Positions 1-38,376 of a DNA stretch of 56,351 bases are shown piece by piece; position 1 is the stretch's first letter; the number at the start of each line of letters is the position of its first letter. The stretch spans positions 1 to 56,351 of the IMG/VR virus record IMGVR_UViG_3300012987_000010, one strand, 5' to 3'. The notes beneath the pieces were generated by a model. That model saw only the letters and a list, made by a program, of their open reading frames with translations. It did no database searches and was not told where the DNA came from. The stretch comes from a virus. Lineage: Duplodnaviria > Caudoviricetes. The position numbers and the translations under genes are program-made.

Positions 1-123
1 ACCTGATCTTCCCCGGTATCGTGCGCGCCGCCGGCGGCGAGGGGCCGACGCCTCCGCAGCAGCCGGTGGTCTCCCTCGCCCAGGTGGTCGCCGCCGCGCA
101 ATCGAACCCGCAGGCGGCCGGTA
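1..123. repeat. 123-bp terminal direct repeat, identical to 56229-56351 (circular assembly overlap)
   Basis: acctgatcttcccc...gcggccggta occurs at both ends; joining the ends restores one continuous endolysin frame. Confidence 0.95.
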
Positions 124-347
124 CACCGGTCACCTACTTCTCGGTGATCTACGTGGAACGCGCACTGGTCGCGGAGGGCTTGCTTCTCGCCGGTCGGGCG
201 GACGGCCACTACGGCACCTCCACGGTCACGGCGTACGCGGCCTGGCAGCGGCGTCTGGGTTACTCGGGGTCGGACGCCGACGGGATCCCCGGCATGGCGT
301 CGCTGTCCCGCCTGGGTTCGCTCCACGGCTTCGGAGTGTCCCGGTGA
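1..347 (+). CDS. Endolysin C-terminal peptidoglycan-binding domain (3' part of the gene starting at 55739)
   Basis: ADGHYGTSTVTAYAAWQRRLG and ADGIPGMASL are PG-binding-1-like motifs. Confidence 0.85.
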   Translation, partial: LIFPGIVRAAGGEGPTPPQQPVVSLAQVVAAAQSNPQAAGTPVTYFSVIYVERALVAEGLLLAGRADGHYGTSTVTAYAAWQRRLGYSGSDADGIPGMASLSRLGSLHGFGVSR

Positions 348-589
348 AGGCGTTCGTCCTGGCCGCCGGGGAACGCGCGGTGGGAGCCTTCTCGGGAGTC
401 CTGTCGAGCGCCCTGATGGCGGACGGAGCGGACGTGTTCCATGTCGGCTGGAAGGCCGCCCTCGGCACGTCGATCGGAGCGGCGCTGCTGTCCGTCCTGG
501 CGTCGTTGACCAAGAGGCCGGTCGGTCCCGAGGGACCGGGCCTCACGGAGACCACGGCCGGAACGGGTCGTCGAAGAAGGCCCGAGTGA
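344..589 (+). CDS. Holin (r1t-like)
   Basis: 81 aa with two hydrophobic segments and an ERA...F / W...LLSVL pattern; overlaps the endolysin stop. Confidence 0.75.
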   Translation: MKAFVLAAGERAVGAFSGVLSSALMADGADVFHVGWKAALGTSIGAALLSVLASLTKRPVGPEGPGLTETTAGTGRRRRPE

Positions 590-825
590 CGTCGGCCCAG
601 GTCCCGGAGGGATCCGTGATCGTCACCCCGGCGGAGGTGTGGCAGGAAGTGCGTGCCACACGCGACGCGGTTCGGGATCTGGCCCACAAGATGGACGACA
701 TCCCGGCACAGCTCCGCGACCAGGAGACCCGGTTGCGCGAGGTGGAGCGCCGCATGTGGTCGGCCATGGGAGTGATCGCATTCCTGATCGTCGCGGCCAC
801 GGTGGCGGTCTCCCTGGTTCCCTGA
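586..825 (+). CDS. Coiled-coil protein with C-terminal TM helix (lysis-cassette accessory)
   Basis: 79 aa; QETRLREVERR coil followed by a hydrophobic tail; translationally coupled to the holin. Confidence 0.6.
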   Translation: MTSAQVPEGSVIVTPAEVWQEVRATRDAVRDLAHKMDDIPAQLRDQETRLREVERRMWSAMGVIAFLIVAATVAVSLVP

Positions 826-830
826 TGACG

Positions 831-866
831 GTCGACCCCGGGTCCGGCACGGGACCCGGGGTCGAC
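831..866. terminator. Bidirectional hairpin terminator between convergent lysis and replication operons
   Basis: gtcgaccccgggtcc / ggacccggggtcgac inverted repeat. Confidence 0.75.
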
Positions 867-1064
867 TCACCAGCCTCGGGGCGGATCGGGGAGGAGCATC
901 TCCTCCGTCATCAGTCCCGCCCTGGTGAGTTCGTCGATGACGTGGTCTCGGACCCCCTCGGACGCGTTCGACCCCAGGCTGTTCCGGTGCCGGCGATACG
1001 CCTTCCACAGGCGATCGGTCATCCGAACCGAGTGTTGCTTCGTGTTGTTGTGGTTGTAGTCCAT
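867..1064 (-). CDS. Ribbon-helix-helix DNA-binding protein (65 aa)
   Basis: TKQHSVRMTDRLWKAY...SNASEGVRDHV fits the RHH strand-helix-helix pattern; GGAGGGG RBS upstream. Confidence 0.6.
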   Translation of the reverse strand: MDYNHNNTKQHSVRMTDRLWKAYRRHRNSLGSNASEGVRDHVIDELTRAGLMTEEMLLPDPPRGW

Positions 1065-1116
1065 CACCCCTCCATGGTCACGACAGACCACCAGGGTAAC
1101 AGGACTGTCTAGACAG

Positions 1117-1344
1117 CTAGTCGTTCTCCGGGTGGCTCTCGAACTCTTCCCACACCAGGGGCGCCCGGTCCACGCGGTAGTGGAGCAGGGTCCGACTCGG
1201 ACTCCTTCGGACGGAGTCCGCCATACGCCTCGCCGCCCCGGTCGCGGCACCCTTGGTCAGCATGGGCCGGTCGGCCTTCTCGAACGTCTCTCCGGACACC
1301 TCCCTGACCTTGATCACACCGCGCCACATGTATCCGTCGGTCAT
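1117..1344 (-). CDS. Hypothetical protein (75 aa)
   Basis: MTDGYMW...; GAGGAGG RBS; coupled to the upstream ORF. Confidence 0.6.
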   Translation of the reverse strand: MTDGYMWRGVIKVREVSGETFEKADRPMLTKGAATGAARRMADSVRRSPSRTLLHYRVDRAPLVWEEFESHPEND

Positions 1345-1511
1345 CGGTCCTCCTCTTCCTTCCGGTCGGCCGCTTCGCGCTGCCGCGTCACCTCGGTGAA
1401 GCACGGTCCGCAGATGTCCTCGTCGAACTCGCATCGACACACGTCCATGCACGGGACGACCCGCGTACGGACGTCGTTCCTCACCTGCTTGCAGGTTTCA
1501 CACTTCCTCAT
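1341..1511 (-). CDS. Small Cys-rich protein (56 aa), probably on a leaderless mRNA
   Basis: MRKCETCKQ...CMDVCRCEF...CGPC; the ATG lies 6 nt after the -10 box of a TTGACA-N18-TAGTGT promoter. Confidence 0.55.
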   Translation of the reverse strand: MRKCETCKQVRNDVRTRVVPCMDVCRCEFDEDICGPCFTEVTRQREAADRKEEEDR

Positions 1512-1565
1512 GTCACGACACTAACCGGGGGACCGGGGGCCTGTCAACACCCCGGTCCCCTGAGG

Positions 1566-4500
1566 TCACTTCTCGTAGCACGCCGCCCAGTTCGACCCGG
1601 CGGCGGAGCGACCACACGAGATCTGTACCGGGCGCGCCGCGCCGGGCGGAGCCCAGGCGAAGGTCATCGCCGCCATGATCCGCTCCGCGTACTCGTCCGC
1701 CCGGTCGGCGGGGATCGAGCACACGATCTCGTCGTGGACGGTGAACAGGATGGTGCTCCGAACCTCCGGGTCCATGGCGAGGATCGCCTCCACCATCAGG
1801 TCCCGGGTGGTCCCCTGGCCCATCAGCGCCGGACCCTGGGTCCACCCGCGCCCGATCTCCGGCCGCATCATCCGGCCGAAGCCGTTGTCCAGAAGAGCCC
1901 CCGTGTCGGCACGCTCGCGCACCTCCGAACGCCACCGGTTGCGGTCCGGGTACGCCTCCGCCACGGCCTCCAAGTACCGGCGCGCGTGGGCGGAGGCGTC
2001 CTCTTCGGTCATGCCCGTGGCGCCCATGATCAGCTTGGCCAGTCCGGCCAGGCCCATGCCGTAGTTCTCGCCGTGTCCGGCCTTCTTGGCCACCTCCCGA
2101 TACGAGGCGTCCCCGAACACGGCGATCGCGTTCGCCGTGTGGAAGTCGGTGTCACCCTCGAACAGATCCATGTACGCCGTGTCCTGGCAGTGCGCCGCGA
2201 CCGCTCGCGCGTCGATCTGGTCGAAGTCGAACGCGATCATCACGTGACCCTCCTCCGGCAGGAAGATCCCCCGCTCGCGCACCTTGCCCCCGTGCTTGCC
2301 GAACACGGTGAGCCCCGGCCGGGTGATGGACAGTCGTCCGGACGCCTGCTCCGGCGACATGACCGGGTGGACCCGGTCGCCCACCAGGTGCTTGGCGACG
2401 GTGGCGTACACGACGCGCGCGCCGTTGGCCGTGCACATCAGGTCCAGGGCTCGGCGCAGATCCTCGGGGCACCGCTCGTGCTCCATGACCCGGGTCAACG
2501 CGTCGACCTTCGTGGACAGTCGACCCTTGGGGGTGCGCGGAGGGTTGGTCACACCGAACAGTTGCCACAGGTTGCCCAACCACTCGACCCCTTCGGCCGT
2601 GGCCAGGGGCGCCGTGAACGTGACCTGTTCGTCGGGCTTCCGCTTGAAGGTGCGGACGCGGGACAGGGGGAGGCCGTACTCCGCGTTCAGGGTGTCCAGC
2701 GCGGTGATCTTCTGCACCTCCTCCTCCTCCGCCCGCAGGGACAGAAGGTCGGTGTCCACCCGCACACCCCGCAGGGTCATCGATCCGCAGGCCGTGAGGA
2801 ACCGGTGTTCCCGGCGGGTGTAGTCGGTCTGTCCGAACATCGGGGCCAGGTCGCGGGAGAGCCTGACGTCCTGCTCCAGGTAGGCGACGTAGCGCGGGTC
2901 GTCCACGGGGATCAGGTGGTATCCGCCGAACTCCGCCTTCAGTGCCTTCAGATCGCCACCCTTGCCGGCGCCCAGGACGCGTTCGCCCAGGGAGTCCAGG
3001 TCGTAGTGGGTCGCGCCGTTGCCGTGTTTGGCCGACGGGGGGTCGGCCTGACGCGCCACGATCAGCGCGTCGTGGGCCTTGGCCGCGAGTCGCTCGTACA
3101 GCTCCACCGGGTCGGCGTCGCCGTGATGGTGGAGCGCCAGGGCGGGGAGGTCGTACCCGAGGATCCGGTGACCGGTGATCGTGTCGGCCGCCTCCAGGAC
3201 CGACAGAAGCTCCGCCGGGTCGGTCGTGGTCACCGGCTCTCCACCGTCCACGGCGTACCCGCACAGACGCGCGAACGGCCCGCGATCGGCCGTCCAGGCG
3301 AACAACTCGTCGGCGTCCGGCGTCTCGATGTCGAACGCCACCAGAGCGGGCGCCGGAACGTCTTGATCCGTCGGGTCGGTCGGGGGGGTCGGCATGGGCT
3401 CCGGATCGTCCGGCGGGACGTCCGGAGTGTCCGGCGAAGTGTCCGGACCGGACGCTCCGGACACCGGACCGAAGGGGTCCTCCGGCTCCGCCGGCGGGGG
3501 ATCCTCATTGCCGAACCGGAGGCCTACGTACGCCATGTACCGGTCCGAGTCGGGCCGACCGTGGCGACCCCTGGGCCGGCTCAGCGTGGAGGCCGACTCC
3601 CCGGCGTAGACCCGGCGCTTGATCAGCCGCGTCCCGATCTCCGGGTGTCCCAGCAACCGGTTGGCCAGGGTCTTGTCCGACCAGGCCCCGTGACCCAGGG
3701 CCTTCAGGTAATCATTGAATTCGGTCAACAGCTCCTGGGACATGACGTGGTGCTCGGGGTCCACGGTCAGGCTCTCCTGGGCGAACCCGAACAGGACGTC
3801 GTTCGCCTCGCGCCAGGCCCGGGTGTCCCGGTTCACGGAGGCGGGCGCCGGGGGCATGATCCGGTCCAGGGCGTACCACCGGCGCGCCCCTTCGACGAGC
3901 CACGCCAGGACGGCCGTGTGGACGGCCGGATCGGTCTTGACCCGTTGCCTCAACGTCGGGTCGCCGTACGCGTCTCCGGGTCCCTCCAACTCCTTGTCCT
4001 CCGCGAGGTACCTCATGGGAAACGTGAGCTGGAGCAGGCGCCGCCAGGTGCCGTGGTCGGTCTCCGTGACCGACGGCCGGTAGTTGGTGTTGACGATCAG
4101 AGTCGACTGGTTGGGGAAGGTGACGAAGTCGCACCGCATGTAGCGGCCGGTGATGAAGCTTGTCCCCACGGTCGTCTTGAGCGCCGTCACGTTCAGGTGC
4201 TTGTCGTCGGGCAGCTCCTCCACCAGGGCGAGCCGCGTCCCCATCAGGGTCATCAGGTCGGTGGGGTGGTCGTCCGGCCGACCCAGCAGGAGCTTCTGGG
4301 GGACGTAGGACACGTAGCTCCCCACGGCCAGCATGACCGCGTCCATGATCGTGGATTTGCCGTTGGAGCCTCCGCCGTGCATCAGCAACATCACGTCGTC
4401 CGGGGTCATGTGGCCGGTGATCGCCTGCCCCAGGCGCAGCTGGAACCAGTCGCGGACGGACGGGTCGGGCAGCGCTTCGAGCGCCGTGTCCCAGTCGGGG

Positions 4501-5795
4501 TGCGTGGCGCCGGCCACGTAGGGGACGGACGTCGACCGGGTCACCCGTACCTTCGGGTCCGGTGGGGAGAGCCGACCGGTGCGCAGATCCACCGCCCCGG
4601 CCGGGGTGTTGAGGATGTCCGGGTCACCGTCGAAGGTCGTGGGGTCGACCAGGATCTCCGGGTACCCGGACGCCGCCTCCCGGGTGGAGTTGACCTTGCT
4701 GTTGTTCTTGACCACCCGGTACACGTTGACCTCGTCCAGACCGGCCTTCGTGGCGAGGCGACCGGACGTGTGGAGGTCGGTCACCCGGTCGTTGCACCAC
4801 TCCTCCAGCCAGGTCCGGATCTCATGGGTCACCTCCGTCTCCGCGTTGCCGTGCCGCTCCCACAGGTGGCCGTCCCAGGCCATCCATCCCATGGCGCCGG
4901 ACCAGACGTACCTATCGGTCAACAGCCGCTCCACGACCTCCGCCGACAACACCTTGTCGGTCACCAGGTCGGCGGCGGCCGACAGGGCGCGGCTCGCCTC
5001 GGTACGGGTGACGGCCGCCGACTCCGGGATGTCGGTCGTGAGCGTGGCCTCCAGGTCGGCCCTGGTGAATCCGGCCGCCAGGTGGTCGTCCACGCCCTTG
5101 CACTCGGTACCGTCCACGTCGCCGGGAAGGACGGCGATCGCCACGTCGGCACCTTTGGTGTCCCGTAGCCACAGGGCGAACCGCTCCTGGGCCTTGGCCA
5201 CCTCCGGCTTCACGGCCGCGTCCGCGTCGAATACGATCCGGACCTTCCTCCCCTTGACCGGGATCGACTCCCAGTCGGGTTGCGCGGCGCCGGCGGTCTT
5301 CCAGTTCCACACCCCGGCCAGGGACACGGCGCACAGGCCCAGGCCGGTGAGCGCGTCACCCTTCTTGATCCCCTCGGTGATCCACACCGGGACGGCCGGA
5401 TCCTTGATCGCCCCCAGGTTGCGGGGATGGACGTCCAGCGGCGGCGTCCGGCCCACGGGCTGGTCGTACTTGATCGACTTGACCTGACCCTTGTGATCGC
5501 CCGCCTCGCGCGGGACGTCCCACCGAACCTGGCCGGAGACGCGCAATCCCTCCGGGTTGAACGCCGGGACGAACAGCCCCGGGGACACGGCCAGGTGTTC
5601 GCGTGCGCCCCTGGTGAATCGCTCCCCCTCCAGGAGGGCGGCGTGCCCGGCGTCGGCCCGACACAGGGACGCGTAGCCACGCTCGATCACCACCAGGGGG
5701 TCGAGACCCCCGGCCGTCAGTGCCGCGTAGTGCTCGGGCGAGAGTGGGGGGAGTTCCGGTTCGTCGCTCCGGGCGACGGCCGTTGAGTCGGTCAC
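1566..5795 (-). CDS. Fused Toprim (DUF3854-like) primase / D5-P4-type SF3 helicase / 3'-5' exonuclease / family A DNA polymerase (1409 aa)
   Basis: Toprim WITEGIKKGDAL, IVFDAD, KGVDD; SF3 Walker A GGGSNGKST, Walker B ALVEE, motif C NTN; exonuclease FDIET, GHRILGYDL, YLEQDV; PolA motif A DFDQIDAR, motif B REVAKKAGHGENYG, motif C TVHDEIV. Confidence 0.9.
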   Translation of the reverse strand: MTDSTAVARSDEPELPPLSPEHYAALTAGGLDPLVVIERGYASLCRADAGHAALLEGERFTRGAREHLAVSPGLFVPAFNPEGLRVSGQVRWDVPREAGDHKGQVKSIKYDQPVGRTPPLDVHPRNLGAIKDPAVPVWITEGIKKGDALTGLGLCAVSLAGVWNWKTAGAAQPDWESIPVKGRKVRIVFDADAAVKPEVAKAQERFALWLRDTKGADVAIAVLPGDVDGTECKGVDDHLAAGFTRADLEATLTTDIPESAAVTRTEASRALSAAADLVTDKVLSAEVVERLLTDRYVWSGAMGWMAWDGHLWERHGNAETEVTHEIRTWLEEWCNDRVTDLHTSGRLATKAGLDEVNVYRVVKNNSKVNSTREAASGYPEILVDPTTFDGDPDILNTPAGAVDLRTGRLSPPDPKVRVTRSTSVPYVAGATHPDWDTALEALPDPSVRDWFQLRLGQAITGHMTPDDVMLLMHGGGSNGKSTIMDAVMLAVGSYVSYVPQKLLLGRPDDHPTDLMTLMGTRLALVEELPDDKHLNVTALKTTVGTSFITGRYMRCDFVTFPNQSTLIVNTNYRPSVTETDHGTWRRLLQLTFPMRYLAEDKELEGPGDAYGDPTLRQRVKTDPAVHTAVLAWLVEGARRWYALDRIMPPAPASVNRDTRAWREANDVLFGFAQESLTVDPEHHVMSQELLTEFNDYLKALGHGAWSDKTLANRLLGHPEIGTRLIKRRVYAGESASTLSRPRGRHGRPDSDRYMAYVGLRFGNEDPPPAEPEDPFGPVSGASGPDTSPDTPDVPPDDPEPMPTPPTDPTDQDVPAPALVAFDIETPDADELFAWTADRGPFARLCGYAVDGGEPVTTTDPAELLSVLEAADTITGHRILGYDLPALALHHHGDADPVELYERLAAKAHDALIVARQADPPSAKHGNGATHYDLDSLGERVLGAGKGGDLKALKAEFGGYHLIPVDDPRYVAYLEQDVRLSRDLAPMFGQTDYTRREHRFLTACGSMTLRGVRVDTDLLSLRAEEEEVQKITALDTLNAEYGLPLSRVRTFKRKPDEQVTFTAPLATAEGVEWLGNLWQLFGVTNPPRTPKGRLSTKVDALTRVMEHERCPEDLRRALDLMCTANGARVVYATVAKHLVGDRVHPVMSPEQASGRLSITRPGLTVFGKHGGKVRERGIFLPEEGHVMIAFDFDQIDARAVAAHCQDTAYMDLFEGDTDFHTANAIAVFGDASYREVAKKAGHGENYGMGLAGLAKLIMGATGMTEEDASAHARRYLEAVAEAYPDRNRWRSEVRERADTGALLDNGFGRMMRPEIGRGWTQGPALMGQGTTRDLMVEAILAMDPEVRSTILFTVHDEIVCSIPADRADEYAERIMAAMTFAWAPPGAARPVQISCGRSAAGSNWAACYEK

Positions 5796-5917
5796 GTTGT
5801 GTTCCCTCTCCTGGGTGTGGTCGGCAGGGATCCGGCACGGGCGAACGAGCCTCGGGCGCGGGACGAGAGGCGATACAAGCTTTGGTACAAAAACCCTGAC
5901 CTGCGGTTTTGCATTCG

Positions 5918-6001
5918 TAGCCAGGGTAGACAGGGTCTCCAGTTGACCAGGGACTCCCGTAAGAGTAGCCGGTCAACTGGAGACCCTGTCTACCCTGGCT
6001 A
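5918..6001. repeat. 31-bp perfect inverted repeat with 22-nt spacer (copy 1; candidate origin)
   Basis: tagccagggtagacagggtctccagttgacc (5918-5948) / ggtcaactggagaccctgtctaccctggcta (5971-6001). Confidence 0.9.
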
Positions 6002-6060
6002 AGTAACGATCACCTGACTCTGAGTCATTGTCGACAGTTACACCAGGTAATCGAATCAGG

Positions 6061-6099
6061 TGTTGACAGACTCGCGTTTCGCCGCCTAGTGTCCAGACA
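6061..6099 (+). promoter_or_regulatory. Housekeeping-sigma-type promoter with overlapping TGTC-NN-GACA palindrome
   Basis: TTGACA...TAGTGT; TGTCCAGACA at 6090-6099. Confidence 0.7.
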
Positions 6100-6121
6100 G
6101 CCGAACTCAAAGGAGCACAGG

Positions 6122-7747
6122 ATGACCGGTATGGAACTCAGGCCCTATCAGACCGAAGTGATCTCCGCCCTAAAGGAGGCCTGGACCGAAGGGGTCCGCC
6201 GCCCGGCGGCCGTCGCGGCCACCGGAGCGGGCAAGACCGTGATGTTCTCCCACCTGATCGAGGGGTGGCACCGGGCCAACCCCGGCCGCCGTGCCGTCGT
6301 CCTGGTCCATCGGGAGGAGTTGGCGGAGCAGACCGTGGACAAGCTCCACCGGACCGCCCCCGATCTGACGACGGGTGTGGTCAAGGCGAAGCGCGACGAG
6401 ACGGACGCCGTGGTGGTGGTCGCCTCCGTCCAGACGCTCATGCGCCCCGGTCGCGTGGAACGGATCCGCGACGTCGGCCTGGTGATCGTGGACGAGTGTC
6501 ACCACTACGCCGCCGACGCGTGGCGCCGGGTCATGGAAAGGCTGGGATGCTTCGAGGATCACGGCCCCCTGGTGGCCGGCTTCACCGCGACCATGGTCCG
6601 GTCCGACGAACGCAAGCTGTCGGCCGTGTGGGACGACGTGGTGGCGGAGGTCGACATCCTGACCCTGATTCGGGCCGGCTACCTGTGCGACGTCCGGGCC
6701 AAGGCGATCGAAGTCGACGGTCTGGACCTGGCGAGCGTGGCCCGGCGCGGCGGCGACTTCGCCGACGGGTCGCTGTCGGACGCGTTGCTCGGCTCGAACG
6801 CCAACGTCGGGATCGTTAAGGCATACGCGGAACACGGCGAGGAACGGCAGACCATCCTGTTCGCCCCCACCGTGGCGTTCGCCAGGGCGTGCGCGGAGGC
6901 CTTCGATTCGGCCGGTGTTCGGGCCGCCGTGGTCAGTGCCGCGACCGACAGTCGGGAGCGGGCGGCGATCTACGCCGCCTACCGGGCGGGGCGTATCCGG
7001 GTCCTGGCCAACTGTGGTGTGCTGACCGAAGGGTTCGACATGCCTCAGGCGTCGTGCCTCATCGGTGCCCGGCCCACCCAGGCGCCCGGTCTGTACATCC
7101 AGATGGTCGGCCGGGTTCTGCGGACCTTCCCCGGCAAGCCGGACGCCCTGGTCCTGGACGTCGTGGGCAACTCCGAGACCATGAACCTGGTCGGCCTCGT
7201 CGACCTGTCTCCGGAGCTGGCCCGACCGGAGGACGGGGAATCCCTCCTGGAGGCCCTGGACCGGGTTCAGAAGGCCGCGCGTCGACGTGGCGGGAACATC
7301 CCCCTGGAGCTGATGACGGCGCGCCAGGTGGACCTGTTCGACCGTTCCTCCGGCGCGTGGAAGCAGACCCACAAGGGAGTGTGGTTCCTGCCGACCGTGG
7401 CGCACACCTACGTCCTGTGGCCGTACGGGGAGACCTTCCGGGTGCTGAGCTACAACAACCAGGGCTCCAAGCAAACTTCGATCCTGCACTCCGATCTGAC
7501 CATGAGTGCCGCCATGGCGGCGGCGGAGGAGGCAGCCATGGACGACGAGGAGTCGTTCATGGAGTCGTTCTCGGTTGCCTCGCGTCACGCCCCTTGGCGT
7601 CGGCGACCGGCGTCGGCGGCCACCCTGGCGTTCGCCCGGCGCCTGGAGATCTGCGTGGACGACTCCATGAAGGGCGGCGAGGTGTCCGACCTGATCGCCG
7701 TGGAGCTTGCCTCCCGATACATCGACCCCAAGGTGAAGGAGTTGTAA
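6122..7747 (+). CDS. SF2 (DEAD/DEAH-like) DNA helicase
   Basis: LRPYQ, ATGAGKT, VIVDECHH, GFTAT, LTEGFDMP, QMVGRVLR; AAGGAG RBS before ATG 6122. Confidence 0.9.
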   Translation: MTGMELRPYQTEVISALKEAWTEGVRRPAAVAATGAGKTVMFSHLIEGWHRANPGRRAVVLVHREELAEQTVDKLHRTAPDLTTGVVKAKRDETDAVVVVASVQTLMRPGRVERIRDVGLVIVDECHHYAADAWRRVMERLGCFEDHGPLVAGFTATMVRSDERKLSAVWDDVVAEVDILTLIRAGYLCDVRAKAIEVDGLDLASVARRGGDFADGSLSDALLGSNANVGIVKAYAEHGEERQTILFAPTVAFARACAEAFDSAGVRAAVVSAATDSRERAAIYAAYRAGRIRVLANCGVLTEGFDMPQASCLIGARPTQAPGLYIQMVGRVLRTFPGKPDALVLDVVGNSETMNLVGLVDLSPELARPEDGESLLEALDRVQKAARRRGGNIPLELMTARQVDLFDRSSGAWKQTHKGVWFLPTVAHTYVLWPYGETFRVLSYNNQGSKQTSILHSDLTMSAAMAAAEEAAMDDEESFMESFSVASRHAPWRRRPASAATLAFARRLEICVDDSMKGGEVSDLIAVELASRYIDPKVKEL

Positions 7748-8223
7748 TGACCCAACGAAGGTGCGGAGTCCGTACGGAGGCGAAGTGGAAGGTGGAGATT
7801 ACCGGGGACGCCGTGAATATGGACCCGGACAACGTGACGATCGTTCCGGAGGACGACCCCTTCGGTCTTGCCGTCAAGGTGTGGAACGTGGCGGTCGTCT
7901 GGCACCTGGATTCCCGGGGCCCGGTGCCGTGGTCCCGGGATCTTCGGTGGTCCTGGAACCCCGAACCACGGGTGACCCTGTGGCGGAACTACGTGGACGC
8001 CGATGGCCACTACACCGACCCCGACCCGAACGGACCCGGTATCGCCTCCGAGACGATCGACTGGTCGTCCCACACGGCGCCGGCCTGGGTGCGTCGGTTG
8101 GTGGAGGAACGGGCGGTCGGGCCGACCGGTGAACGAGCCGTTCTGCCACATCCGCCGGCACCGCCGACCCAGGTGTGCGTCCACTCCGAATGCCCTGCCC
8201 ACGGTGGAGGCGATGATGTCTGA
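7747..8223 (+). CDS. Hypothetical protein (158 aa)
   Basis: TAATG coupling to the helicase; coding-like composition. Confidence 0.6.
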   Translation: MTQRRCGVRTEAKWKVEITGDAVNMDPDNVTIVPEDDPFGLAVKVWNVAVVWHLDSRGPVPWSRDLRWSWNPEPRVTLWRNYVDADGHYTDPDPNGPGIASETIDWSSHTAPAWVRRLVEERAVGPTGERAVLPHPPAPPTQVCVHSECPAHGGGDDV

Positions 8224-8431
8224 CCCGCCGCTGCGGTGCACGGTGGACGTGCATCGACCGGAGGACGACGTTCACCCGGTGAACCTGGTACACGACCCAT
8301 ACGCCCTGCCGGACGACCAGCCGTTCGCTGCCTGCACCGAGTGCCATCGGTTCCTGGTGGCCGAAGCCCAGGACTACGCGCGGACCCTTCACCAATTGTG
8401 GTGGGACTCGTACCCGACCGATCTCTGGTGA
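8213..8431 (+). CDS. Hypothetical protein with CxxC (72 aa)
   Basis: GGAGG RBS; ACTECH. Confidence 0.5.
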   Translation: MMSDPPLRCTVDVHRPEDDVHPVNLVHDPYALPDDQPFAACTECHRFLVAEAQDYARTLHQLWWDSYPTDLW

Positions 8432-8505
8432 CCGAACAGCCCGGACCCTCATGAGGGTCCGGGCTGTTAGGCTGTCATGACACGACACCTGGGACAGGAG
8501 TACCG

Positions 8506-9828
8506 ATGGAAGCCAAGTACGACGGCTGGTGCGACGCCTGCCAAAGCGACATCCACGCGGGCGACGAGATCGTCTCGAACGACGACGGCGGGTGGGTTCA
8601 CCTGGAGTGCGGGCCGGAGGAGGAGGAGGGCCCGGCCGACGACATCATGGGCCGGCTCATGGGGCCGGTCGGCCGTGACGCGGACACGACCGGGACCGAC
8701 CTGGCCACACGCCGTGAGTCGGTCCGTCGGACGACAGGCTACGTGCCGGACCCGGTCGACCCCGAGTCGGCCGCCATGGCGCAGGACGACGGGTCGATCC
8801 CACCGTCCGAGCCCGCCGGACGGCATCCGGCATTGCGTGACGAAGTGCCCATGAATCCGCCGGCGCACCCGCCGCAACCGGAGGTCAAGCGGGACCGGTA
8901 CGGGCGGTACGTCCTCAAGCACCCCACGAAGAACCTCCGAGGCGCCCTCTCCCGGTGCACCACCGTGGTCAAGGCGTCCGCCGACACCTATGCCCTGGGA
9001 GAGTGGCAGAAGGGCAACGTGGCCCGTGGCCTGTCCCGCCGCCCCGATCTCCTGGCCATGGCGGCGAGCATGGGCCCGGGGGACCGGCGATTGAAGAAGC
9101 TGGTGGCGGACGCGGAGGAGGCCGGCGGCGGGTCGGAGGCCGCCAACCTGGGTACCGCACTCCACGGCTTCACGGAGGCGATCGACCGGGGCGGCCGGTT
9201 GGCCGACGTGCCGGAGGACCACCGCGACGACGTGATCGCCTACCGCAAGGAGATGATCCGGCAACAGCTGACCGTCGTTCCGGAGGCGATCGAGCGGGTC
9301 ACCATGACGTCCCGATGGGACGGTGTGGCCGGGACCTTCGACCGGATCTACCGCCTGGACGACGGGACGTACGTGATCGGCGACCTGAAGACCGGCAAGG
9401 TCGGCTACGACCCCAAGGAGATGTTCGCCCAACTCGCCGTGTACGCCCAGGGCGTCAACGAGGTCGGCGTGTACGACGTCGCGGCGGAGCGCTGGGAGCG
9501 CCTGCCCTTCGATGTCCGCACCGACCTGGGGCTGATCGTCCACCTCCCCGCCGGTGAGGCCACGTGCACGGTGTACCTGGCCGACCTGGAGGCCGGGCGT
9601 CATCACGTGGAGTTCTGCGCCTCGGTGCGCCGGCACCGCAAGCTGAAGCACGCTCTTCCGGCCAGGGAGGCACCGGGAGCCACGGAGGACGAGTGGTTCG
9701 ACGCCATCTGCCGCGCTCCGAGTCGCGACGTCCTGGCCGTCCTCGGTTGGATGATCAACGACGACGGCGCCATGACGGACCGGTTGCTCGAAGCCGGTCG
9801 CACCCGGGCCGGTCAACTCCCCGACTGA
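8506..9828 (+). CDS. PD-(D/E)xK exonuclease (RecE/Cas4-like) with an N-terminal Zn-finger
   Basis: GTALH, AGTFDRI, IGDLKTG, QLAVYA; N-terminal CDAC...HLEC. Confidence 0.8.
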   Translation: MEAKYDGWCDACQSDIHAGDEIVSNDDGGWVHLECGPEEEEGPADDIMGRLMGPVGRDADTTGTDLATRRESVRRTTGYVPDPVDPESAAMAQDDGSIPPSEPAGRHPALRDEVPMNPPAHPPQPEVKRDRYGRYVLKHPTKNLRGALSRCTTVVKASADTYALGEWQKGNVARGLSRRPDLLAMAASMGPGDRRLKKLVADAEEAGGGSEAANLGTALHGFTEAIDRGGRLADVPEDHRDDVIAYRKEMIRQQLTVVPEAIERVTMTSRWDGVAGTFDRIYRLDDGTYVIGDLKTGKVGYDPKEMFAQLAVYAQGVNEVGVYDVAAERWERLPFDVRTDLGLIVHLPAGEATCTVYLADLEAGRHHVEFCASVRRHRKLKHALPAREAPGATEDEWFDAICRAPSRDVLAVLGWMINDDGAMTDRLLEAGRTRAGQLPD

Positions 9829-9935
9829 CGGGACTTGACTGTCATGACAGTGACGGTCTAGTCTGGTGGAACACCGGCCGGGGCGGAGGGCAAGGACCCG
9901 GTCCGGCCGGTGGACAAGGAGATCGGCGGTACGGA

Positions 9936-10007
9936 GGGCGTGGCCTGTGGTCGGCCGTAGGACGGGAGTGGAACCTCGTCACCAGGGTGCAACCCCCTGG
10001 GCGCCCA
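9936..10007 (+). ncRNA. tRNA-sized cloverleaf-like element (degenerate, loop AGTGGAA)
   Basis: GGGCGT/GCGCCC-A closing stem, three internal hairpins, T-arm-like CCAGGG-TGCAAC-CCCTGG; non-canonical loops. Confidence 0.35.
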
Positions 10008-10078
10008 CGCCTCCACGGACGGAGGGTGTGATATCCCGCCGGACCGGCAAGTTCGACGGGTCCTACCGAGGAGTACGC

Positions 10079-10276
10079 ATGAAGTACTGGATGGGCGTCG
10101 TCGCCGTGTCTGCGGTGGCAGGGGCTTCCCTGGGTATGTTCGACCTGGTGTCCGACCACCGCACACCATTCTGGATGAACATGATCGTCGGAGGCGTGGC
10201 CGTCTACGTATACGACCGGGTATATCGGCTCCGCGCCGACCGGGCCGACGTCAAGCCGATGCACGAAGACATCTGA
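10079..10276 (+). CDS. Small membrane protein (65 aa)
   Basis: GAGGAG RBS; two hydrophobic segments. Confidence 0.6.
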   Translation: MKYWMGVVAVSAVAGASLGMFDLVSDHRTPFWMNMIVGGVAVYVYDRVYRLRADRADVKPMHEDI

Positions 10277-10363
10277 GTTTCCCGTCGTGACCACTTCCCG
10301 TGGTCGCCATGGGGACGGTCCGGGACGATCGCCCGGAGCCTGGAACGACGGTATGTTGCCGTC

Positions 10364-10449
10364 GGGTGCGTGACGGAAAGGCCGGTCCGATTACCGGCTG
10401 AAGGGTTTCCCCGCGTGGCGGGAAGCCGGGTTCGACCCCCGGCGCACCA
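10364..10449 (+). ncRNA. tRNA-like element with an intact acceptor and T-arm but atypical D and anticodon arms
   Basis: GGTGCG/CGCACC-A stem; T-arm CCGGG-TTCGACC-CCCGG. Confidence 0.5.
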
Positions 10450-10552
10450 CGGGAACACGGCGGTCTGCAAAGCCGACACGTGATCCAAGACCCCTGACAG
10501 GGTCGGTGCCCGACAGCTCTGCGCGTGTCAGGGTGACAGAGTGAGGGCATTC

Positions 10553-10624
10553 GGGTGGATAGCACAATCGGTAGTGCGCCCGGCTGTAAACCGGGTGATC
10601 GAGGTTCGACTCCTCGTCCTCCCA
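10553..10624 (+). tRNA. tRNA-Tyr(GTA), short variable loop, CCA not encoded
   Basis: Acceptor GGGTGGA/TCCTCCC (one mismatch), D-arm GCAC/GTGC, anticodon arm CCCGG-CTGTAAA-CCGGG, T-arm CGAGG-TTCGACT-CCTCG. Confidence 0.8.
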
Positions 10625-10804
10625 CGGGGCCGTGACACGAGAAGCGATCGACCGCATATCCGGATGGCCGTTACCGGTAACAGGTACGGATGGCCGGTGA
10701 ACCGGGGCGATCGTGGAAGCAACAGGTCCCGCATGCACTCAACCAAGCCTCATGGGCGGTGTCAGGAGAGTGCAGGGGATGGCCCACCCGGCTGCAACGG
10801 GCCA

Positions 10805-10875
10805 GGGGAGAGATGGTGTAGTGGCAGCACGTCGGTCGCGACGAAGGGTTCCGGTTCGAATCCGGTGCTCTCCCC
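10805..10875 (+). ncRNA. tRNA-like element with a truncated anticodon arm
   Basis: GGGGAGAG/CTCTCCCC stem; canonical D-arm GTGT-AGTGGCA-GCAC; CCGG-TTCGAAT-CCGG; anticodon arm reduced to GTCG-GTCG-CGAC. Confidence 0.6.
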
Positions 10876-10878
10876 GAA

Positions 10879-10981
10879 TGGACACGCCGCTTCGGTGGCA
10901 TCGGGTACACGTGAAGACGAGGGTTTGGAGTGCTCCTTTCCCCTGGTCCCACGGACCGTGGTTCGAATCCACGGGTGTCCA
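10879..10981 (+). ncRNA. tRNA-like element with acceptor and T-arm and a long atypical interior
   Basis: TGGACAC/GTGTCCA 7-bp stem; CCGTGG-TTCGAAT-CCACGG; GCCGC-TTCG-GTGGC hairpin in place of the D-arm. Confidence 0.55.
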
Positions 10982-11099
10982 CAACCGTCGGCAGGTCCCC
11001 AGTCGGCGCCCTTGGGCGGATGCCGTGGGACGTCAAGGTTGGCCCATCCGTACGCCGTGAGGTTGGGCTCATCGGCAACAGCGACAGCCAGGAGACATC

Positions 11100-11678
11100 G
11101 TGAGCATGGACGACCTGTTCGACCGGATGATGGGTGAGGAGTGGGCCAAGTCGGCCGACTTCTCCGAGATCGGCAACAGCCACGCCGGCATCTGGACGGC
11201 GATCAACGAGAAGCAGGCGCGTGAGTTCATCCCCGGCTCCCCCGGCAAGGGGGCCCTGCTGTTCTGGGGCGACGACCGGAAGCCTACGAAGATCCCCAAC
11301 GACTCGCCCCTGATGGAGATGTGCGTCATCTTCCAGACGGACCAGGACGACGAGGAATGGGAGGACGACGGGGACGACGGCCGCCGGGAGATCAGGATGA
11401 ACAAGAAGGCTCTGACGTCCGCCTTCCGTTCCGCAGTCCTGGCTTCCGGGGCCAAGAAGCCCGAGCTGGGCGCCTGGTGGCGCGTCACCCGGGTGGAGAA
11501 CGGAAAGCCCGCCTACAAGGGCGGCAACCCTCCGTGGGGTTGGCACGTGGTCTACAAGACCCCCGCCCAGTACGCCGAGACCGGCGCCGACCCGGCTTCC
11601 CGGGTCGCCCCGGCCAAGTCGGCCGTCAAGGCCGGGCGCAAGGTCCAGGACGACGACCCGTTCGCCGTCCCCGAGTAA
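11100..11678 (+). CDS. Single-stranded DNA-binding protein (actinophage type)
   Basis: beta-rich core with an acidic DDDPF tail; lies near the exonuclease. Confidence 0.65.
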   Translation: MSMDDLFDRMMGEEWAKSADFSEIGNSHAGIWTAINEKQAREFIPGSPGKGALLFWGDDRKPTKIPNDSPLMEMCVIFQTDQDDEEWEDDGDDGRREIRMNKKALTSAFRSAVLASGAKKPELGAWWRVTRVENGKPAYKGGNPPWGWHVVYKTPAQYAETGADPASRVAPAKSAVKAGRKVQDDDPFAVPE

Positions 11679-11974
11679 CCGTTGGACCACGACCCCCGGC
11701 GCACGGTGCGCCGGGGGTCTTCTCCTGGAAGGGGTACACCGTGTGTGACGCGACCGGGTGTGTGAGCCCCGTAGCGGCGTGGAGGATCGGCCGCGACAAC
11801 CGGGGGCACAAGACCACCCTCGCCCTGTGTGTCGCCCACCGCCAGGCCCTGGACTCCGGAGAGCCGGTGACCACGGCGGCCGGCACCTTCCGGGAATGAG
11901 ACCACGGCCGTCGGGAGGGCGAGTCCGACGCGCCGGCCGCGCGATGCCGGTCCGCCAACCACGGCTACGCGCAC

Positions 11975-12010
11975 CGAAGCCCGCACCCCTTGCCGGGGGT
12001 GCGGGCTTCG
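11975..12010. terminator. Hairpin terminator between convergent genes
   Basis: cgaagcccgcacccc / ggggtgcgggcttcg. Confidence 0.7.
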
Positions 12011-24798: not shown

Positions 24799-24883
24799 TA
24801 GCCAGGGTAGACAGGGTCTCCGGTTAACCAGCTAGCCTCGCGGGGGTTACTGGGTTAACTGGAGACCCTGTCTACCCTGGCTA
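24799..24883. repeat. 31-bp inverted repeat (one mismatch) with 23-nt spacer; copy 2 of the 5918-6001 element
   Basis: tagccagggtagacagggtctccggttaacc / ggttaactggagaccctgtctaccctggcta. Confidence 0.9.
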
Positions 24884-29669: not shown

Positions 29670-29842
29670 GCCCCCGCCCACCCGGCGGGGGCTTTGCCGT
29701 GTCGGGGTGTTGACAGATAGCCGATGATCATGATAAACTGTCAACACACCAACCCTGCGCCGGCTCTACCGAGTGGTTGGAAAGTCGTCGGAGATTGGGT
29801 GTTGACAGTCCTGGCAAGACCGGGTAGTGTTTGTCATGTCAG
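29670..29842 (+). repeat. 173-bp direct repeat copy 1 (terminator + palindrome + promoter module)
   Basis: Matches 30886-31058 with two mismatches. Confidence 0.9.
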
Positions 29843-29870
29843 CAGGGAACACCACACGAAGGAGCACACC

Positions 29871-30281
29871 ATGAAGGCCCTCCAGTTCTCCGTATCCCGC
29901 ACCGGCTTCAAGATCGTGCACACCAACTCCGAGGGCAACCGTCACGCCTCCTGCGGGATCGTCGTCTCGAAGGTGCTGGACGCGGAGGAGTCGGCCCAGC
30001 GCATCATGGGCGGCGGGGCCCGGCTGTGCAAGAACTGCCTGCGGGTCAAGCCAGCCCGCGACCTGTCCGCCCCGGTCGTCCGGGACGAGCCGACCGACGT
30101 ATGGTCCGTGATCGACCGGGCCGGCAACGAGGTTACCCGGGTCTACGGAAAGACCCTGGCCGACGCCCGGAACGAGGCGGAGCGGGTGGACTACGTGCGT
30201 GAGGTCCGGTACGCGGAGGGTGGCTACGTTCTCCGGTGCCTGACCCGGTCCCAGCTGGAGTCGACCGCGTCCGCGAACTGA
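29871..30281 (+). CDS. Hypothetical Zn-finger protein (136 aa)
   Basis: AAGGAGCACACCATG start; VH...SCG...CKNC. Confidence 0.7.
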   Translation: MKALQFSVSRTGFKIVHTNSEGNRHASCGIVVSKVLDAEESAQRIMGGGARLCKNCLRVKPARDLSAPVVRDEPTDVWSVIDRAGNEVTRVYGKTLADARNEAERVDYVREVRYAEGGYVLRCLTRSQLESTASAN

Positions 30282-30885: not shown

Positions 30886-31058
30886 GCCCCCGCCCACCCG
30901 GCGGGGGCTTTGCCGTGTCGGGGTGTTGACAGATAGCCGATGATCATGATAAACTGTCAACACATCAACCCTGCGCCGGCTCTACCGAGTGGTTGGAAAG
31001 TCGTCGGAGATTGGGTGTTGACAGTCCTGGCGAGACCGGGTAGTGTTTGTCATGTCAG
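30886..31058 (+). repeat. 173-bp direct repeat copy 2
   Basis: Offset 1216 bp from copy 1. Confidence 0.9.
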
Positions 31059-31089
31059 AGGGACACGGAAGACCACAAAGGAGCACACC

Positions 31090-31413
31090 ATGTCGAAGAA
31101 CCTCAGCGCCGCCGCCGTCAAGACCCTCACCACCATCTCCGCCGGCCCGGTCGACTGCTACGCACGCACCGCCGGGATCGACTGCCGGACGCTGAAGGCC
31201 CTGGTCCGCAAGGGCCTCCTGGTCAGGGTCGCGGGAGGCGACTACCGCCACGCGATCACCGAGGCCGGCCGCGCCGCGATCGCCCCGGCCGCTCCGGTCG
31301 CCGCCCCCAAGCCGGCCGCCTCCGGAATCATCTACCTGCCTGCCGACTACAAGCCGACGTTCATCGACAACGCGGGCCGCGTCCAGGAGCCCTGGTTCGG
31401 CATGGGCATGTGA
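31090..31413 (+). CDS. Winged-helix-like DNA-binding protein (107 aa)
   Basis: TLKALVRKGLLVR...HAITEAGRAAI. Confidence 0.55.
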   Translation: MSKNLSAAAVKTLTTISAGPVDCYARTAGIDCRTLKALVRKGLLVRVAGGDYRHAITEAGRAAIAPAAPVAAPKPAASGIIYLPADYKPTFIDNAGRVQEPWFGMGM

Positions 31414-38000: not shown

Positions 38001-38376
38001 CAACGTGAACGCCGTAGTCGCCGATGTCGTGTCGGGTGAAGACGCCTTCGGCATCTGGTTCTCCGGCCGGGTCCGGCCGCATGTGACCGAAGCGCAACGG
38101 GCCTACTTGAGGTCGGCCACACTGTCGGGTGACTGGCGGTCGTTCGGCGGAAAGCTCCGCCTGGTCGCGATGTTGGCCGTGAACGTCCCGGGCTTCCCGG
38201 TCCCGCGCCTGGCGACCGGGACGTCCGCCGGGAGGCAGTTCGCCCTGGTGGCCGCCGGCATCCCCACCCAGCGGAACACCTTGTCCGTTGTCATGTCATC
38301 CTTGCAACGACGACTCGGGCGCGACAGCGTCACTCGTCGCAATGCCCTGATCGACAGGGTCCACGGGAAGGAGTGA
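35002..38376 (+). CDS. Polyprotein: MuF-like minor head domain, 2H phosphoesterase and capsid maturation protease-type domains
   Basis: MuF IARTE, KRW..NED.RVRPTH, ETINCRC; 2H LHMTL and PHVTL; protease-like GVSVDLD/GATLVTYPAY; C-terminal LSGDWR...VNVPGFPVPR. Confidence 0.8.
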   Translation: MTLLSIVAIPRDELDAIAERFATDVVAALVDTLAEGFGGTPDAMTAAGWLEAFRRNPRPPAPADLASLRTLWGRRVTALADRIRSVYGRSVLAVRDQAIPAVAEPPDWRSRIGEGPSAAPDWRTLVSEGMPVVPPAAADPVMEVVWRNLTTLGDELFDEVAAQIQEGARLGEDVDAISLRVQRVVGNAMWRAKRIARTEMTRAANNASLAEMLFSGLDGSKRWVSNEDNRVRPTHREADGQEVPIRETFDVGGFPLLYPGDPTGPPGETINCRCDLAHVVPTEQTPDWASNLGAGPMSPRAGEWPPDTLEEWMTDPVPDNPAFPPFEELTADGAFQSTMPPKLKAYWLAGEGAAKIRWGTPGSFDRCVRALGPKFPGNPQGLCANLYHEATGRWPGAGRGEGSLAAASEIHTGAMVALVPSAADAARLVADGGEPIDQLHMTLMYLGDADLYSENARESIRERMMSHPFTGPITADAFAVNVFNPGDATDRDPCVVMGLSGGELSHVHGFARQALDYELEHMAPPQHEPWIPHVTLAYTDDMTRVSEFADRVGPVTFDNILVAFGDDHYYIPLGAPVPDVAMEPLPDMPEPEPEPMPWPEGSFQAIITVEGIETGDSRAFLPNALTVAPGTWLEFNWQPRIKEGHEDAVLVGRLHDVWREDDGSIMARGCFDVNGEHGREAMRLVRENFLKGVSVDLDTVVVEEFYDDPESDRASFELYHQGRIRGATLVTYPAYVEAQIWMTEGTPMEAGQPGDMGLVASGDPVALVAAAVKSHDTPTTDTAWDGAAAVKRLPSPMSLETARNAFAWIDESAVTDGEVPKSACKFPHHEVSTDGTPGAANLAACSAGIAVLNGGRGGTNIPAADVKGVYDHLARHIRDADKEPPALAASALVACGCDDTWEPPTDEMFTDPGFTRFTPPTLTADGRYFGHAAEWETCHTGVQGTCRKPPREGGEHAYFRLGEVITASGSSLAVGHITMGIGHAPLTPGFSAAAAIEHYDNVNAVVADVVSGEDAFGIWFSGRVRPHVTEAQRAYLRSATLSGDWRSFGGKLRLVAMLAVNVPGFPVPRLATGTSAGRQFALVAAGIPTQRNTLSVVMSSLQRRLGRDSVTRRNALIDRVHGKE

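Follow-up and report, generated by a model that had tools for sequence, protein, structure and literature searches.

A predicted replicase with primase, D5-type helicase and proofreading family A polymerase domains in one open reading frame of a putative actinobacterial phage

The replicase gene and its reading frame

In this study, we analyzed the IMG/VR virus record IMGVR_UViG_3300012987_000010 (56,351 nucleotides, the whole of which is hereafter called the window) and the gene of a predicted replicase in it, which combines a DnaG-type primase domain, a superfamily 3 (SF3) helicase of the D5 type and a proofreading family A DNA polymerase (PolA) in a single chain. Among the long genes at this end of the window, it is the sole one on the minus strand. 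The reading frame 1566..5795 contains zero internal stops, and the predicted chain has a size of approximately 155 kDa. An earlier note, made from the DNA letters alone, had described a single open reading frame (ORF) of 1409 amino acids (aa) without giving a strand; this frame is confirmed and is located on the minus strand. The gene and its parts are as follows.

1566..5795, minus strand: whole replicase gene (P0001), 1409 codons plus stop, GTG start
5804..5812, minus strand: Shine-Dalgarno-like AGGAGAGGG, 8 nt 5' of the replicase GTG, read from the sequence
5031..5768, minus strand (aa 10-255): DnaG-type primase RNA-polymerase domain (N-terminal subdomain and Toprim), assigned by Pfam, fold and motifs
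4476..4937, minus strand (aa 287-440): D5_N collar domain, Pfam D5_N at 58.5 bits (cut-off 22.4), E 1.2e-15
3816..4463, minus strand (aa 445-660): SF3 AAA+ helicase core, assigned by Pfam DUF5906, TIGR01613 and folds
3510..3806, minus strand (aa 664-762): C-terminal winged helix, assigned by fold; candidate origin-binding domain, a function presumed from the fold
3354..3509, minus strand (aa 763-814): acidic Pro-rich linker of 52 residues, probably disordered, assigned by composition and low model confidence at its ends
2811..3353, minus strand (aa 815-995): 3'-5' proofreading exonuclease, assigned by invariant motifs and fold
1569..2810, minus strand (aa 996-1409): family A polymerase, assigned by Pfam, PDB sequence matches and fold

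A plus-strand ORF of 1144 aa (1734..5168) was rejected as a gene because it is an R/G/V/H-rich shadow frame of DNA with 68-70% GC.

The window comes from a metagenome assembly, and the nearest cultured phages carry both genes adjoining and in the same order. Both points would fit an artefact, namely two adjacent genes merged through the loss of a stop codon, an erroneous frameshift or chimeric assembly, an explanation to which we assign a negligible probability. The junction was checked in contigs from four sequencing runs. A soil-metagenome contig (run X2) spans 3119-3686, and thus the linker, with zero differences, and a 5534-nt contig from another study (run X4) spans 1566-5335 with 241 substitutions and 0 gaps. 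Insertions or deletions in the replicase gene are listed for none of the four runs, the uncovered parts of the gene in runs X1 and X3 counting neither way. Among the runs that best match the window, one may be the source of the window itself. Contigs from independent runs thus cross the linker, for which the earlier note had suggested a check of read coverage, without insertions or deletions. In addition, the same single frame is present in 43 related viral contigs, three Streptomyces genomes and one Synechococcus genome. The GC content at third codon positions is 0.92 over the whole gene and stays at 0.82-0.96 across all 28 bins of 50 codons, the linker included, and the start codon is preceded by a good ribosome-binding site. 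An artefact is therefore excluded for practical purposes.

Domain composition of the predicted protein

Judged by sequence and predicted structure, the replicase is one P4 alpha-like module followed by a Klenow-like proofreading family A polymerase, with a flexible, acidic, Pro-rich linker between them. All four Pfam domains of the protein exceed the curated cut-offs. Two AlphaFold models were built with family alignments as input, covering aa 1-770 with a mean predicted local distance difference test (pLDDT) value of 88.2 and aa 793-1409 with a mean of 92.6. Residue conservation was scored in 51 full-length homologues that are 30-75% identical to the window protein. In PHROGs, aa 90-732 match DNA primase families and aa 789-1408 match phrog_17 DNA polymerase.

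The N-terminal part matches Pfam DUF3854 of the Toprim clan (aa 130-241, E 2e-16). The Toprim residues E141-G142-x-K144, D190-x-D192 and D236-D237 are invariant (51/51 homologues), and the pair K109-Y110 is invariant or nearly so. In VIA-align comparisons, aa 1-255 matched Aquifex primase (2au3; Z 16.3, root mean square deviation 3.1, 222 residues aligned), B. subtilis DnaG (5guj; Z 15.7), M. tuberculosis DnaG (5w33; Z 14.2), T4 gp61 (8dvf; Z 14.0) and T7 primase (1nui; Z 13.2). The five primase chains aligned over 180-238 residues, whereas Toprim-only topoisomerases reached Z 7-9; Twinkle chains matched in the primase part alone (Z 13). Because the scores to primases (Z 13-16) are well above the Toprim-only range, the stretch called Toprim in the earlier note is, according to the model, the entire catalytic domain of a DnaG-type primase without the zinc-binding domain. 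The zinc-binding domain of DnaG-type primases was not found; there is one Cys in aa 1-130, and a Cys/His cluster is absent. In DnaG, T7 and T4 primases, this domain serves template recognition.

The absence of the zinc-binding domain and the assignment by Pfam to DUF3854 only would also fit a structural, regulatory or nuclease-type domain, with DNA synthesis starting from host primers, transcripts or recombination intermediates. The SF2 helicase and PD-(D/E)XK exonuclease encoded beside the replicase (see below) would suit such recombination-dependent replication. However, it is the full DnaG RNA-polymerase domain that is matched, and both its metal-binding acidic residues and K109-Y110 are conserved throughout the family. 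Moreover, two relatives (P0083 and P0087) have an AEP-type (archaeo-eukaryotic primase) PrimPol in place of the DnaG-type domain, as expected if a primase is needed at this position. We regard a domain without priming activity as quite unlikely, and we prefer the assignment as a primase.

The helicase core follows a D5_N collar. Pfam DUF5906 covers aa 472-586 (33.9 bits, cut-off 27.6), and NCBIfam TIGR01613 (phage/plasmid primase, P4 family; C-terminal region) covers aa 394-707 (142.3 bits, cut-off 108.7). Walker A (G474...K480), sensor N571 and R586 (Arg finger) are invariant in the 51 homologues, and the Walker B pair E526/E527 is kept in at least 90% of them. With aa 279-666, VIA-align matched vaccinia D5 (8hwa, Z 28.6; 8apl, Z 28.4), the collar being included in the match, as well as the SaPI5 primase-helicase (7ola; Z 25.0), C962R of African swine fever virus (ASFV; Z 24.3) and NrS-1 (Z 20.3). 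The helicase also matched ASFV C962R in a PDB sequence search (E 2.4e-16), and Foldseek matched this part to the ASFV PrimPol hexamer (E 1.4e-25) and to mpox E5. In an hhalign comparison with P4 alpha, a probability of 94% was obtained for the helicase region only.

With aa 664-766, VIA-align matched the RFX DNA-binding domain (1dp7; Z 9.8), RFX5 (8zjr; Z 9.4) and the P4 origin-binding domain (1ka8; Z 7.3, 80 residues aligned, 22% identity), and the winged-helix block has pLDDT values of 85-95. This domain was missed by the earlier note, and its fold likeness to the P4 domain makes it a candidate origin binder. The three-part plan of P4 alpha (primase, SF3 helicase and origin-binding winged helix) is thus similar to that of the N-terminal 762 residues here, although hhalign found no alignment between the primase parts of the two proteins. 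P4 alpha has no polymerase and uses that of the host. Poxvirus D5/E5 and ASFV C962R share the D5_N collar, the SF3 AAA+ core and the winged-helix fold with the window protein (Z 24-29); their primase is of the AEP type, in contrast to the DnaG type here, and they have no fused polymerase.

The linker residues 762-808 (window 3372-3512) include 17 Pro and 12 Asp/Glu among 47 residues, and the modelled linker ends (aa 765-770 and aa 793-813) have pLDDT values below 50. Among the 51 homologues, the segment from G758 to D822 is 51-195 aa long, acidic throughout, rich in Pro/Ser/Thr/Gly and poor in Lys/Arg. The linker, although otherwise variable, retains one or two copies of a DPF motif in most of these 51 proteins; the motif reads EDPF in the window protein (aa 772-775) and may be a short docking motif. 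We rejected the idea that it is the leftover of a C-terminal tail, since none of the 11 unfused relatives inspected ends in DPF. Five unfused primase-helicase relatives (P0070, P0073, P0074, P0075 and P0077) have Cys-rich (CxxC...CxxC) tails after the winged helix, which may be a C-terminal zinc ribbon in place of the linker and polymerase.

In the C-terminal half, the exonuclease residues of Exo I (D822/E824), Exo II (H876/D882) and Exo III (Y972/D976) are invariant in the 51 homologues, as are polymerase motifs A (D1190..R1197), B (K1237..Y1245-G1246) and C (H1354-D1355-E1356). Pfam DNA_pol_A covers aa 1084-1381 (96 bits, cut-off 34.3). PDB sequence matches of this half are to Taq and Klenow (E 1e-13 to 4e-12), and Foldseek identified the Klenow/Bst large-fragment fold (template modelling score approximately 0.7; Bst Pol I, E 7e-21). 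A 5'-nuclease domain was not found in the replicase by Pfam or NCBIfam profiles. Motif B reads GHG-NYG, and its H1241 (window about 2071-2073) is present in at least 90% of the family and in gp57 of Streptomyces phage Mischief19, whereas D29 gp44 has Phe. This position corresponds to Phe762 in Klenow and to a Tyr in T7, where the residue sets discrimination against dideoxynucleotides. A complex prediction of aa 430-762 with aa 812-1409 scored 0.00 and is evidence neither way on docking between polymerase and helicase.

What the earlier note had read from the letters about the domains was supported by these analyses. The Toprim, SF3, exonuclease and PolA motifs that it called intact are so in the sense that the catalytic residues are invariant in the 51 full-length homologues; the helicase is a D5-type AAA+ enzyme by Pfam, Foldseek and VIA-align, and thus SF3 rather than the SF4 type of T7 and PREX; and the Pro/Asp-rich linker that it placed at about 3370-3510 corresponds to aa 762-808.

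Relatives, spread and genomic setting

In the best-matching cultured phages, the two halves are separate, neighbouring genes. None of the 2429 cultured phage records matched by tblastn covers 80% of the query at one place, and in each of the best 40 the match consists of two pieces under at least two annotated genes, which in most of these 40 are named primase or primase/helicase and DNA polymerase I. For the best 40 of the 2429 records, this agrees with the statement of the earlier note that these functions are usually encoded separately. The sole megablast match of window 1-12000 among cultured phages was 37 nt long, in Nocardia phage KYD2, and no close cultured relative was found. The nearest cultured relative, Streptomyces phage Mischief19, encodes a DNA primase (gp58) and a DNA polymerase I (gp57) in the same gene order as here. 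Mischief19 gp57 is 36% identical to the PolA over its full length (E 3e-104) and shares the GHG-NYG motif B and the C-terminal CY-K ending; its two genes are 121 nt apart, however, whereas the window protein is fused.

A fusion of this type has been described. Kazlauskas, Krupovic and Venclovas (NAR 2016, PMC4889955) report Pas55 of phiAsp2 as a fusion of an SF3 helicase, a DnaG primase and PolA. They count two three-way fusions as known, namely this one and gp55 of Lactococcus phage 1706 with AEP and PolB. Pas55 from Actinoplanes phage phiAsp2 (NC_005885, 1415 aa) agrees with the window protein in domain order and size, and both come from actinobacterial phages. The N-terminal DUF3854/Toprim primase domains are 31% identical over 232 aa, and the C-terminal exonuclease and PolA parts are 35% identical over 645 aa (E 2e-83), but the middle of Pas55 is not alignable by BLASTP, and Pfam D5_N and DUF5906 were not found there. 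Because only its ends align, phiAsp2 Pas55 is missing from the listed tblastn rows. The window protein thus fits the Pas55-type class (DnaG-type primase, SF3 helicase and PolA in one phage ORF, in that order), and by sequence comparison its helicase module belongs to a subfamily other than that of Pas55. D5-like helicases that are joined to Toprim primases and a proofreading PolA are also noted in a 2024 paper (PMC10853773). No bench study of such fusions of primase, SF3 helicase and PolA was found in literature searches, in which supplementary files were outside the scope. The architecture has been in print since 2016, and the ground left for new work is biochemical rather than genomic.

The PREX protein of the Plasmodium apicoplast, to which the earlier note had pointed as an analogous fusion, is described in the consulted part of a 2023 reclassification of PolA by Czernecki et al. 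(PMC10201439) as the product of one gene with Toprim primase, helicase, exonuclease and PolA. The analogy holds in that the domain order is common to both. The same work records fusions for Pol theta, PREX, AEP-PolA and a helicase of thermophilic phages, and gives the actinophage D29-like cluster (cluster 9) "no known partners" (PMC10201439). Mycobacterium phage D29 gp44 is 25% identical to the PolA of the window (E 2e-23). The PREX polymerase is distant, with E 9e-7 compared to 9e-14 for Taq. The PREX helicase is of the T7 gp4/Twinkle type (SF4), as the earlier note also had it, in contrast to the D5-type SF3 helicase here, and the two types track opposite strands.

The fusion is widespread outside culture collections. 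Of 118 clusters listed by a word-indexed protein search, 72 (query included) have both D5_N and DNA_pol_A and 54 also have DUF3854, with lengths of 1343-1808 aa for the fused clusters. In IMG/VR, 161 relatives were found and 75 loci were kept, 47 of which contain both halves; the other 28 have just one half inside the fetched stretch. In 43 of these 47 loci the halves form one open frame, and in four they are two adjacent or overlapping ORFs. At IMG/VR loci L113 and L122, the PolA ORF is in a different frame from the primase-helicase ORF, with 21 and 120 nt shared between them; genuine splits, programmed frameshifts or errors in sequencing could each account for this. A scan of species-representative genomes yielded no loci with the single replicase protein as the query and 78 loci with the family alignment as the query. 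A single ORF of 1477-1541 codons stop-to-stop spans both halves in Streptomyces sp. NRRL S-455, S. africanus, Streptomyces sp. NPDC126497 and Synechococcus sp. MIT S9507. The ORF on the Synechococcus chromosome (L029, 7575-12002) encodes 1476 aa with a weak DUF3854 match followed by D5_N, DUF5906 and DNA_pol_A. Since this is a marine cyanobacterium, the fusion is not limited to actinobacteria and their phages.

With the PolA half as the query, a search of 1.84 billion 50%-identity representatives gave 276 matches at E <= 1e-30, of which we classified the best 150 using local hidden Markov models built from the family alignment.

At least 1200 aa: 93 of the best 150 PolA representatives; 62 with a D5-type helicase (53 of them with a primase domain), 29 with a middle like that of phiAsp2 Pas55 (27 with a primase domain) and 2 with neither
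700-1199 aa: 15 of the best 150, with mixed content
Below 700 aa: 42 of the best 150, PolA alone, some of which may be fragments

Two fused homologues of approximately 1805 aa (P0016 and P0026) have a LAGLIDADG_3 (PF14528) match, which suggests an intein or homing-endonuclease insert within the replicase; P0052 (1808 aa) has no such match on record. Many relatives of approximately 800 aa that consist of the primase-helicase module alone are present in genomes of Actinomycetota and Acidobacteriota, with no PolA within 8 kb. A quick tree of the helicases contains five changes between fused and unfused states, at least four of them forced by well-supported branches, and in a FastTree of the PolA domains the helicase types are intermixed, with 20 changes between D5 and Pas55 types. 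Both trees were made with fast methods and have long branches, "unfused" rows include proteins without a nearby polymerase, and "stand-alone" PolA rows may be fragments; we take no count from them. At the level of sequence, fusion, fission or cassette swap has occurred more than once, the two helicase cassettes are interchangeable, and an AEP primase replaces the DnaG-type domain in some members. The architecture is, on these data, frequent in uncultured actinobacterial phages and reaches cyanobacteria. The rarity and novelty suggested in the earlier note did not survive, given the 72 of 118 listed clusters, the 93 of the best 150 PolA representatives, the 43 of 47 IMG/VR loci and the published descriptions. 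The note had named an architecture "common and already characterised" as the outcome that would speak against its claim; the architecture is common, and characterization at the bench was not found in the literature searches.

The split loci bear on another possibility, namely that the chain is a polyprotein, and that linker cleavage or internal initiation yields the two enzymes that actually work, a primase-helicase and a polymerase. Such processing has been suggested for PREX of the apicoplast. The long, probably disordered linker with its variable length (51-195 aa) and low-pLDDT ends would accommodate it, and the four split IMG/VR loci and Mischief19 indicate that the halves can work apart. 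There is also an in-frame ATG at M801 with GGAG 3 nt upstream. This site is weak, however, with poor spacing, and Met is not conserved there across the 51 homologues; an internal start for a separate polymerase was rejected because aa 700-860 contain no in-frame start with a good Shine-Dalgarno box. Neither a protease gene nor a cleavage motif was recognized, and clades with as little as 30-40% identity retain the fused frame, which argues that the linkage itself is selected. We therefore consider a polyprotein unlikely and favor a replicase that works as one chain.

The window is a complete or nearly complete phage record with a GC content of 64-71% and 123-nt direct terminal repeats, corresponding to a genome of about 56.2 kb. 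The plus strand encodes a large terminase, portal, MuF-like protein, major capsid protein, head-tail adaptor, tape measure protein, endolysin, holin, SF2 helicase, PD-(D/E)XK exonuclease, FtsK-like ATPase and WhiB regulator. The gene content points to a tailed phage of an actinobacterium as the carrier of the replicase, the host being suggested by the WhiB gene and by the related genes in Streptomyces genomes. Metagenome runs in which at least half of the words sampled from window 2900-4100 are present carry a soil or rhizosphere label. Three features lie next to the replicase gene.

6089..7747, plus strand: SF2 (DEAD/ResIII) helicase, divergent conserved neighbour; phrog_16 E 5.8e-91; Pfam ResIII, DEAD and Helicase_C
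8506..9828, plus strand: PD-(D/E)XK exonuclease, conserved neighbour; phrog_466 E 1.8e-70; Pfam PDDEXK_1
5918-6001, unstranded: near-perfect palindrome of 84 nt, with arms of 39 nt that are 92% complementary and 6 nt apart, between the replicase and SF2 helicase genes

At three Streptomyces loci (L003, L004 and L006), the fused gene again adjoins a divergent SF2 helicase gene (43% identity) and an exonuclease gene. The recurrence of these neighbours suggests a conserved replication module, and the term "single-polypeptide replisome" used in the earlier note was therefore an overstatement. A second primase, polymerase or hexameric helicase was not found in scans of the window proteins, and Pfam detected neither a single-stranded DNA-binding protein (SSB) nor a tyrosine integrase in the window.

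The palindrome has a second copy at 24799-24883 (94-97% identity), 18.9 kb away and just 5' of the packaging genes. It is a candidate operator, terminator or origin with a putative link to the replicase. A role as a conserved origin was not supported, since no inverted repeat of this kind was found in the matching intergenic regions of the three Streptomyces loci. Elsewhere in the window, there is a direct repeat of 173 nt (29670-29842 and 30886-31058) with copies that are 99% identical and 1216 nt apart. Two small ORFs on the plus strand (29724-30281 and 30940-31413) have their starts within it, which suggests a recent local duplication. The MuF-like head protein (35002-38376, 1124 aa) has many unrelated PHROG matches (head morphogenesis, RNA-ligase-annotated and protease-annotated); it looks like a polyvalent, multi-domain protein and may be packaged in the virion. 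The endolysin gene apparently spans the record ends, with a 204-aa frame running to the right end (55739-56351) and a C-terminal match at 21-347, as would be expected if the assembly were circularly permuted and its 123-nt "terminal repeat" were an overlap.

A proposed replication mechanism

We propose a mechanism for the replicase by homology to D5/E5, P4 alpha and ASFV C962R, with SaPI5 also taken as a solved hexameric relative. The explanation that we consider the best, and probable, is a P4 alpha-like initiator, primase and helicase whose polymerase is tethered where the leading-strand template exits the ring. According to the consulted part of the work on mpox E5 (PMC12137749), hexamers of that protein have been solved, it moves along the leading strand toward its N-terminal primase, and its winged helix lies below the AAA+ tier. 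By analogy, the replicase would form a hexameric ring, which would load at the origin, possibly via the winged helix, and track along the leading-strand template in the 3'->5' direction, the N-terminal face pointing to the fork. The primase domains would thereby be positioned at the fork beside the displaced lagging strand, because the ring is assumed to run N-face first on the leading strand as mpox E5 does. The C-terminal polymerases would hang at the ring face where the leading-strand template leaves. Since SF3 helicases are hexamers, several (six) polymerases would be carried per ring, provided that the ring is a hexamer; the earlier note had also supposed several polymerases per ring, and its self-priming amplification enzyme is a hypothetical extension of this. 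One tethered polymerase would copy the leading strand, and the remaining polymerases, on tethers of approximately 50 residues here and up to approximately 190 in relatives, would be free to extend lagging-strand primers. Steps that depend on recombination are probably the task of the SF2 helicase and PD-(D/E)XK exonuclease encoded nearby, and SSB, ligase and primer removal would presumably be provided by the host.

In T7 gp4 and PREX, the helicase rides the lagging-strand template, and the geometry proposed here is the mirror image of theirs. The layout resembles the helicase-polymerase order of eukaryotes.

Several points weigh against this mechanism. The oligomeric state, polarity and orientation are borrowed from distant homologues with 16-20% identity, and the winged-helix matches have scores of just Z 7-10, a range that may reflect a common arrangement. 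The zinc-binding domain with which primases such as DnaG and those of T7 and T4 recognize their templates is absent. The phage has no SSB recognizable by Pfam and no recognizable clamp, which leaves processivity unexplained, and in motif B a His (H1241) takes the place of Phe762 in Klenow and of Tyr in T7. Moreover, covalent linkage is not required for function if the split halves at four related IMG/VR loci and in Mischief19 are a guide, and a long disordered linker equally suits a protein that is cut after translation.

A more far-reaching version, in which the hexamer is a self-contained replisome, is conceivable, although we find it doubtful. The winged helix would find the origin, priming would proceed without a zinc finger, and the template would be handed directly to the tethered proofreading polymerase, an arrangement analogous to CMG-Pol epsilon and opposite to T7 and PREX, with the spare polymerases and the DPF motif(s) organizing the lagging strand. 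If this were true, one protein alone would perform primer-free, helicase-driven DNA amplification in vitro.

The remaining interest of the fusion lies in whether the chain primes, unwinds and copies DNA alone, and in how a leading-strand SF3 helicase couples to a tethered family A polymerase. One chain of approximately 155 kDa with priming, unwinding, copying and proofreading activities could make a simple reagent for amplifying DNA isothermally and without primers. Many natural variants would be available for screening, since the family is both diverse and large: of the nearest 150 representatives (50% identity), at least 93 are long. For the biology of these phages, the replicase would be a natural test case of primase-helicase-polymerase coupling with the helicase on the leading-strand template, a eukaryote-like geometry in a bacterial virus, in which the coupling would be achieved by a covalent tether instead of weak contacts.

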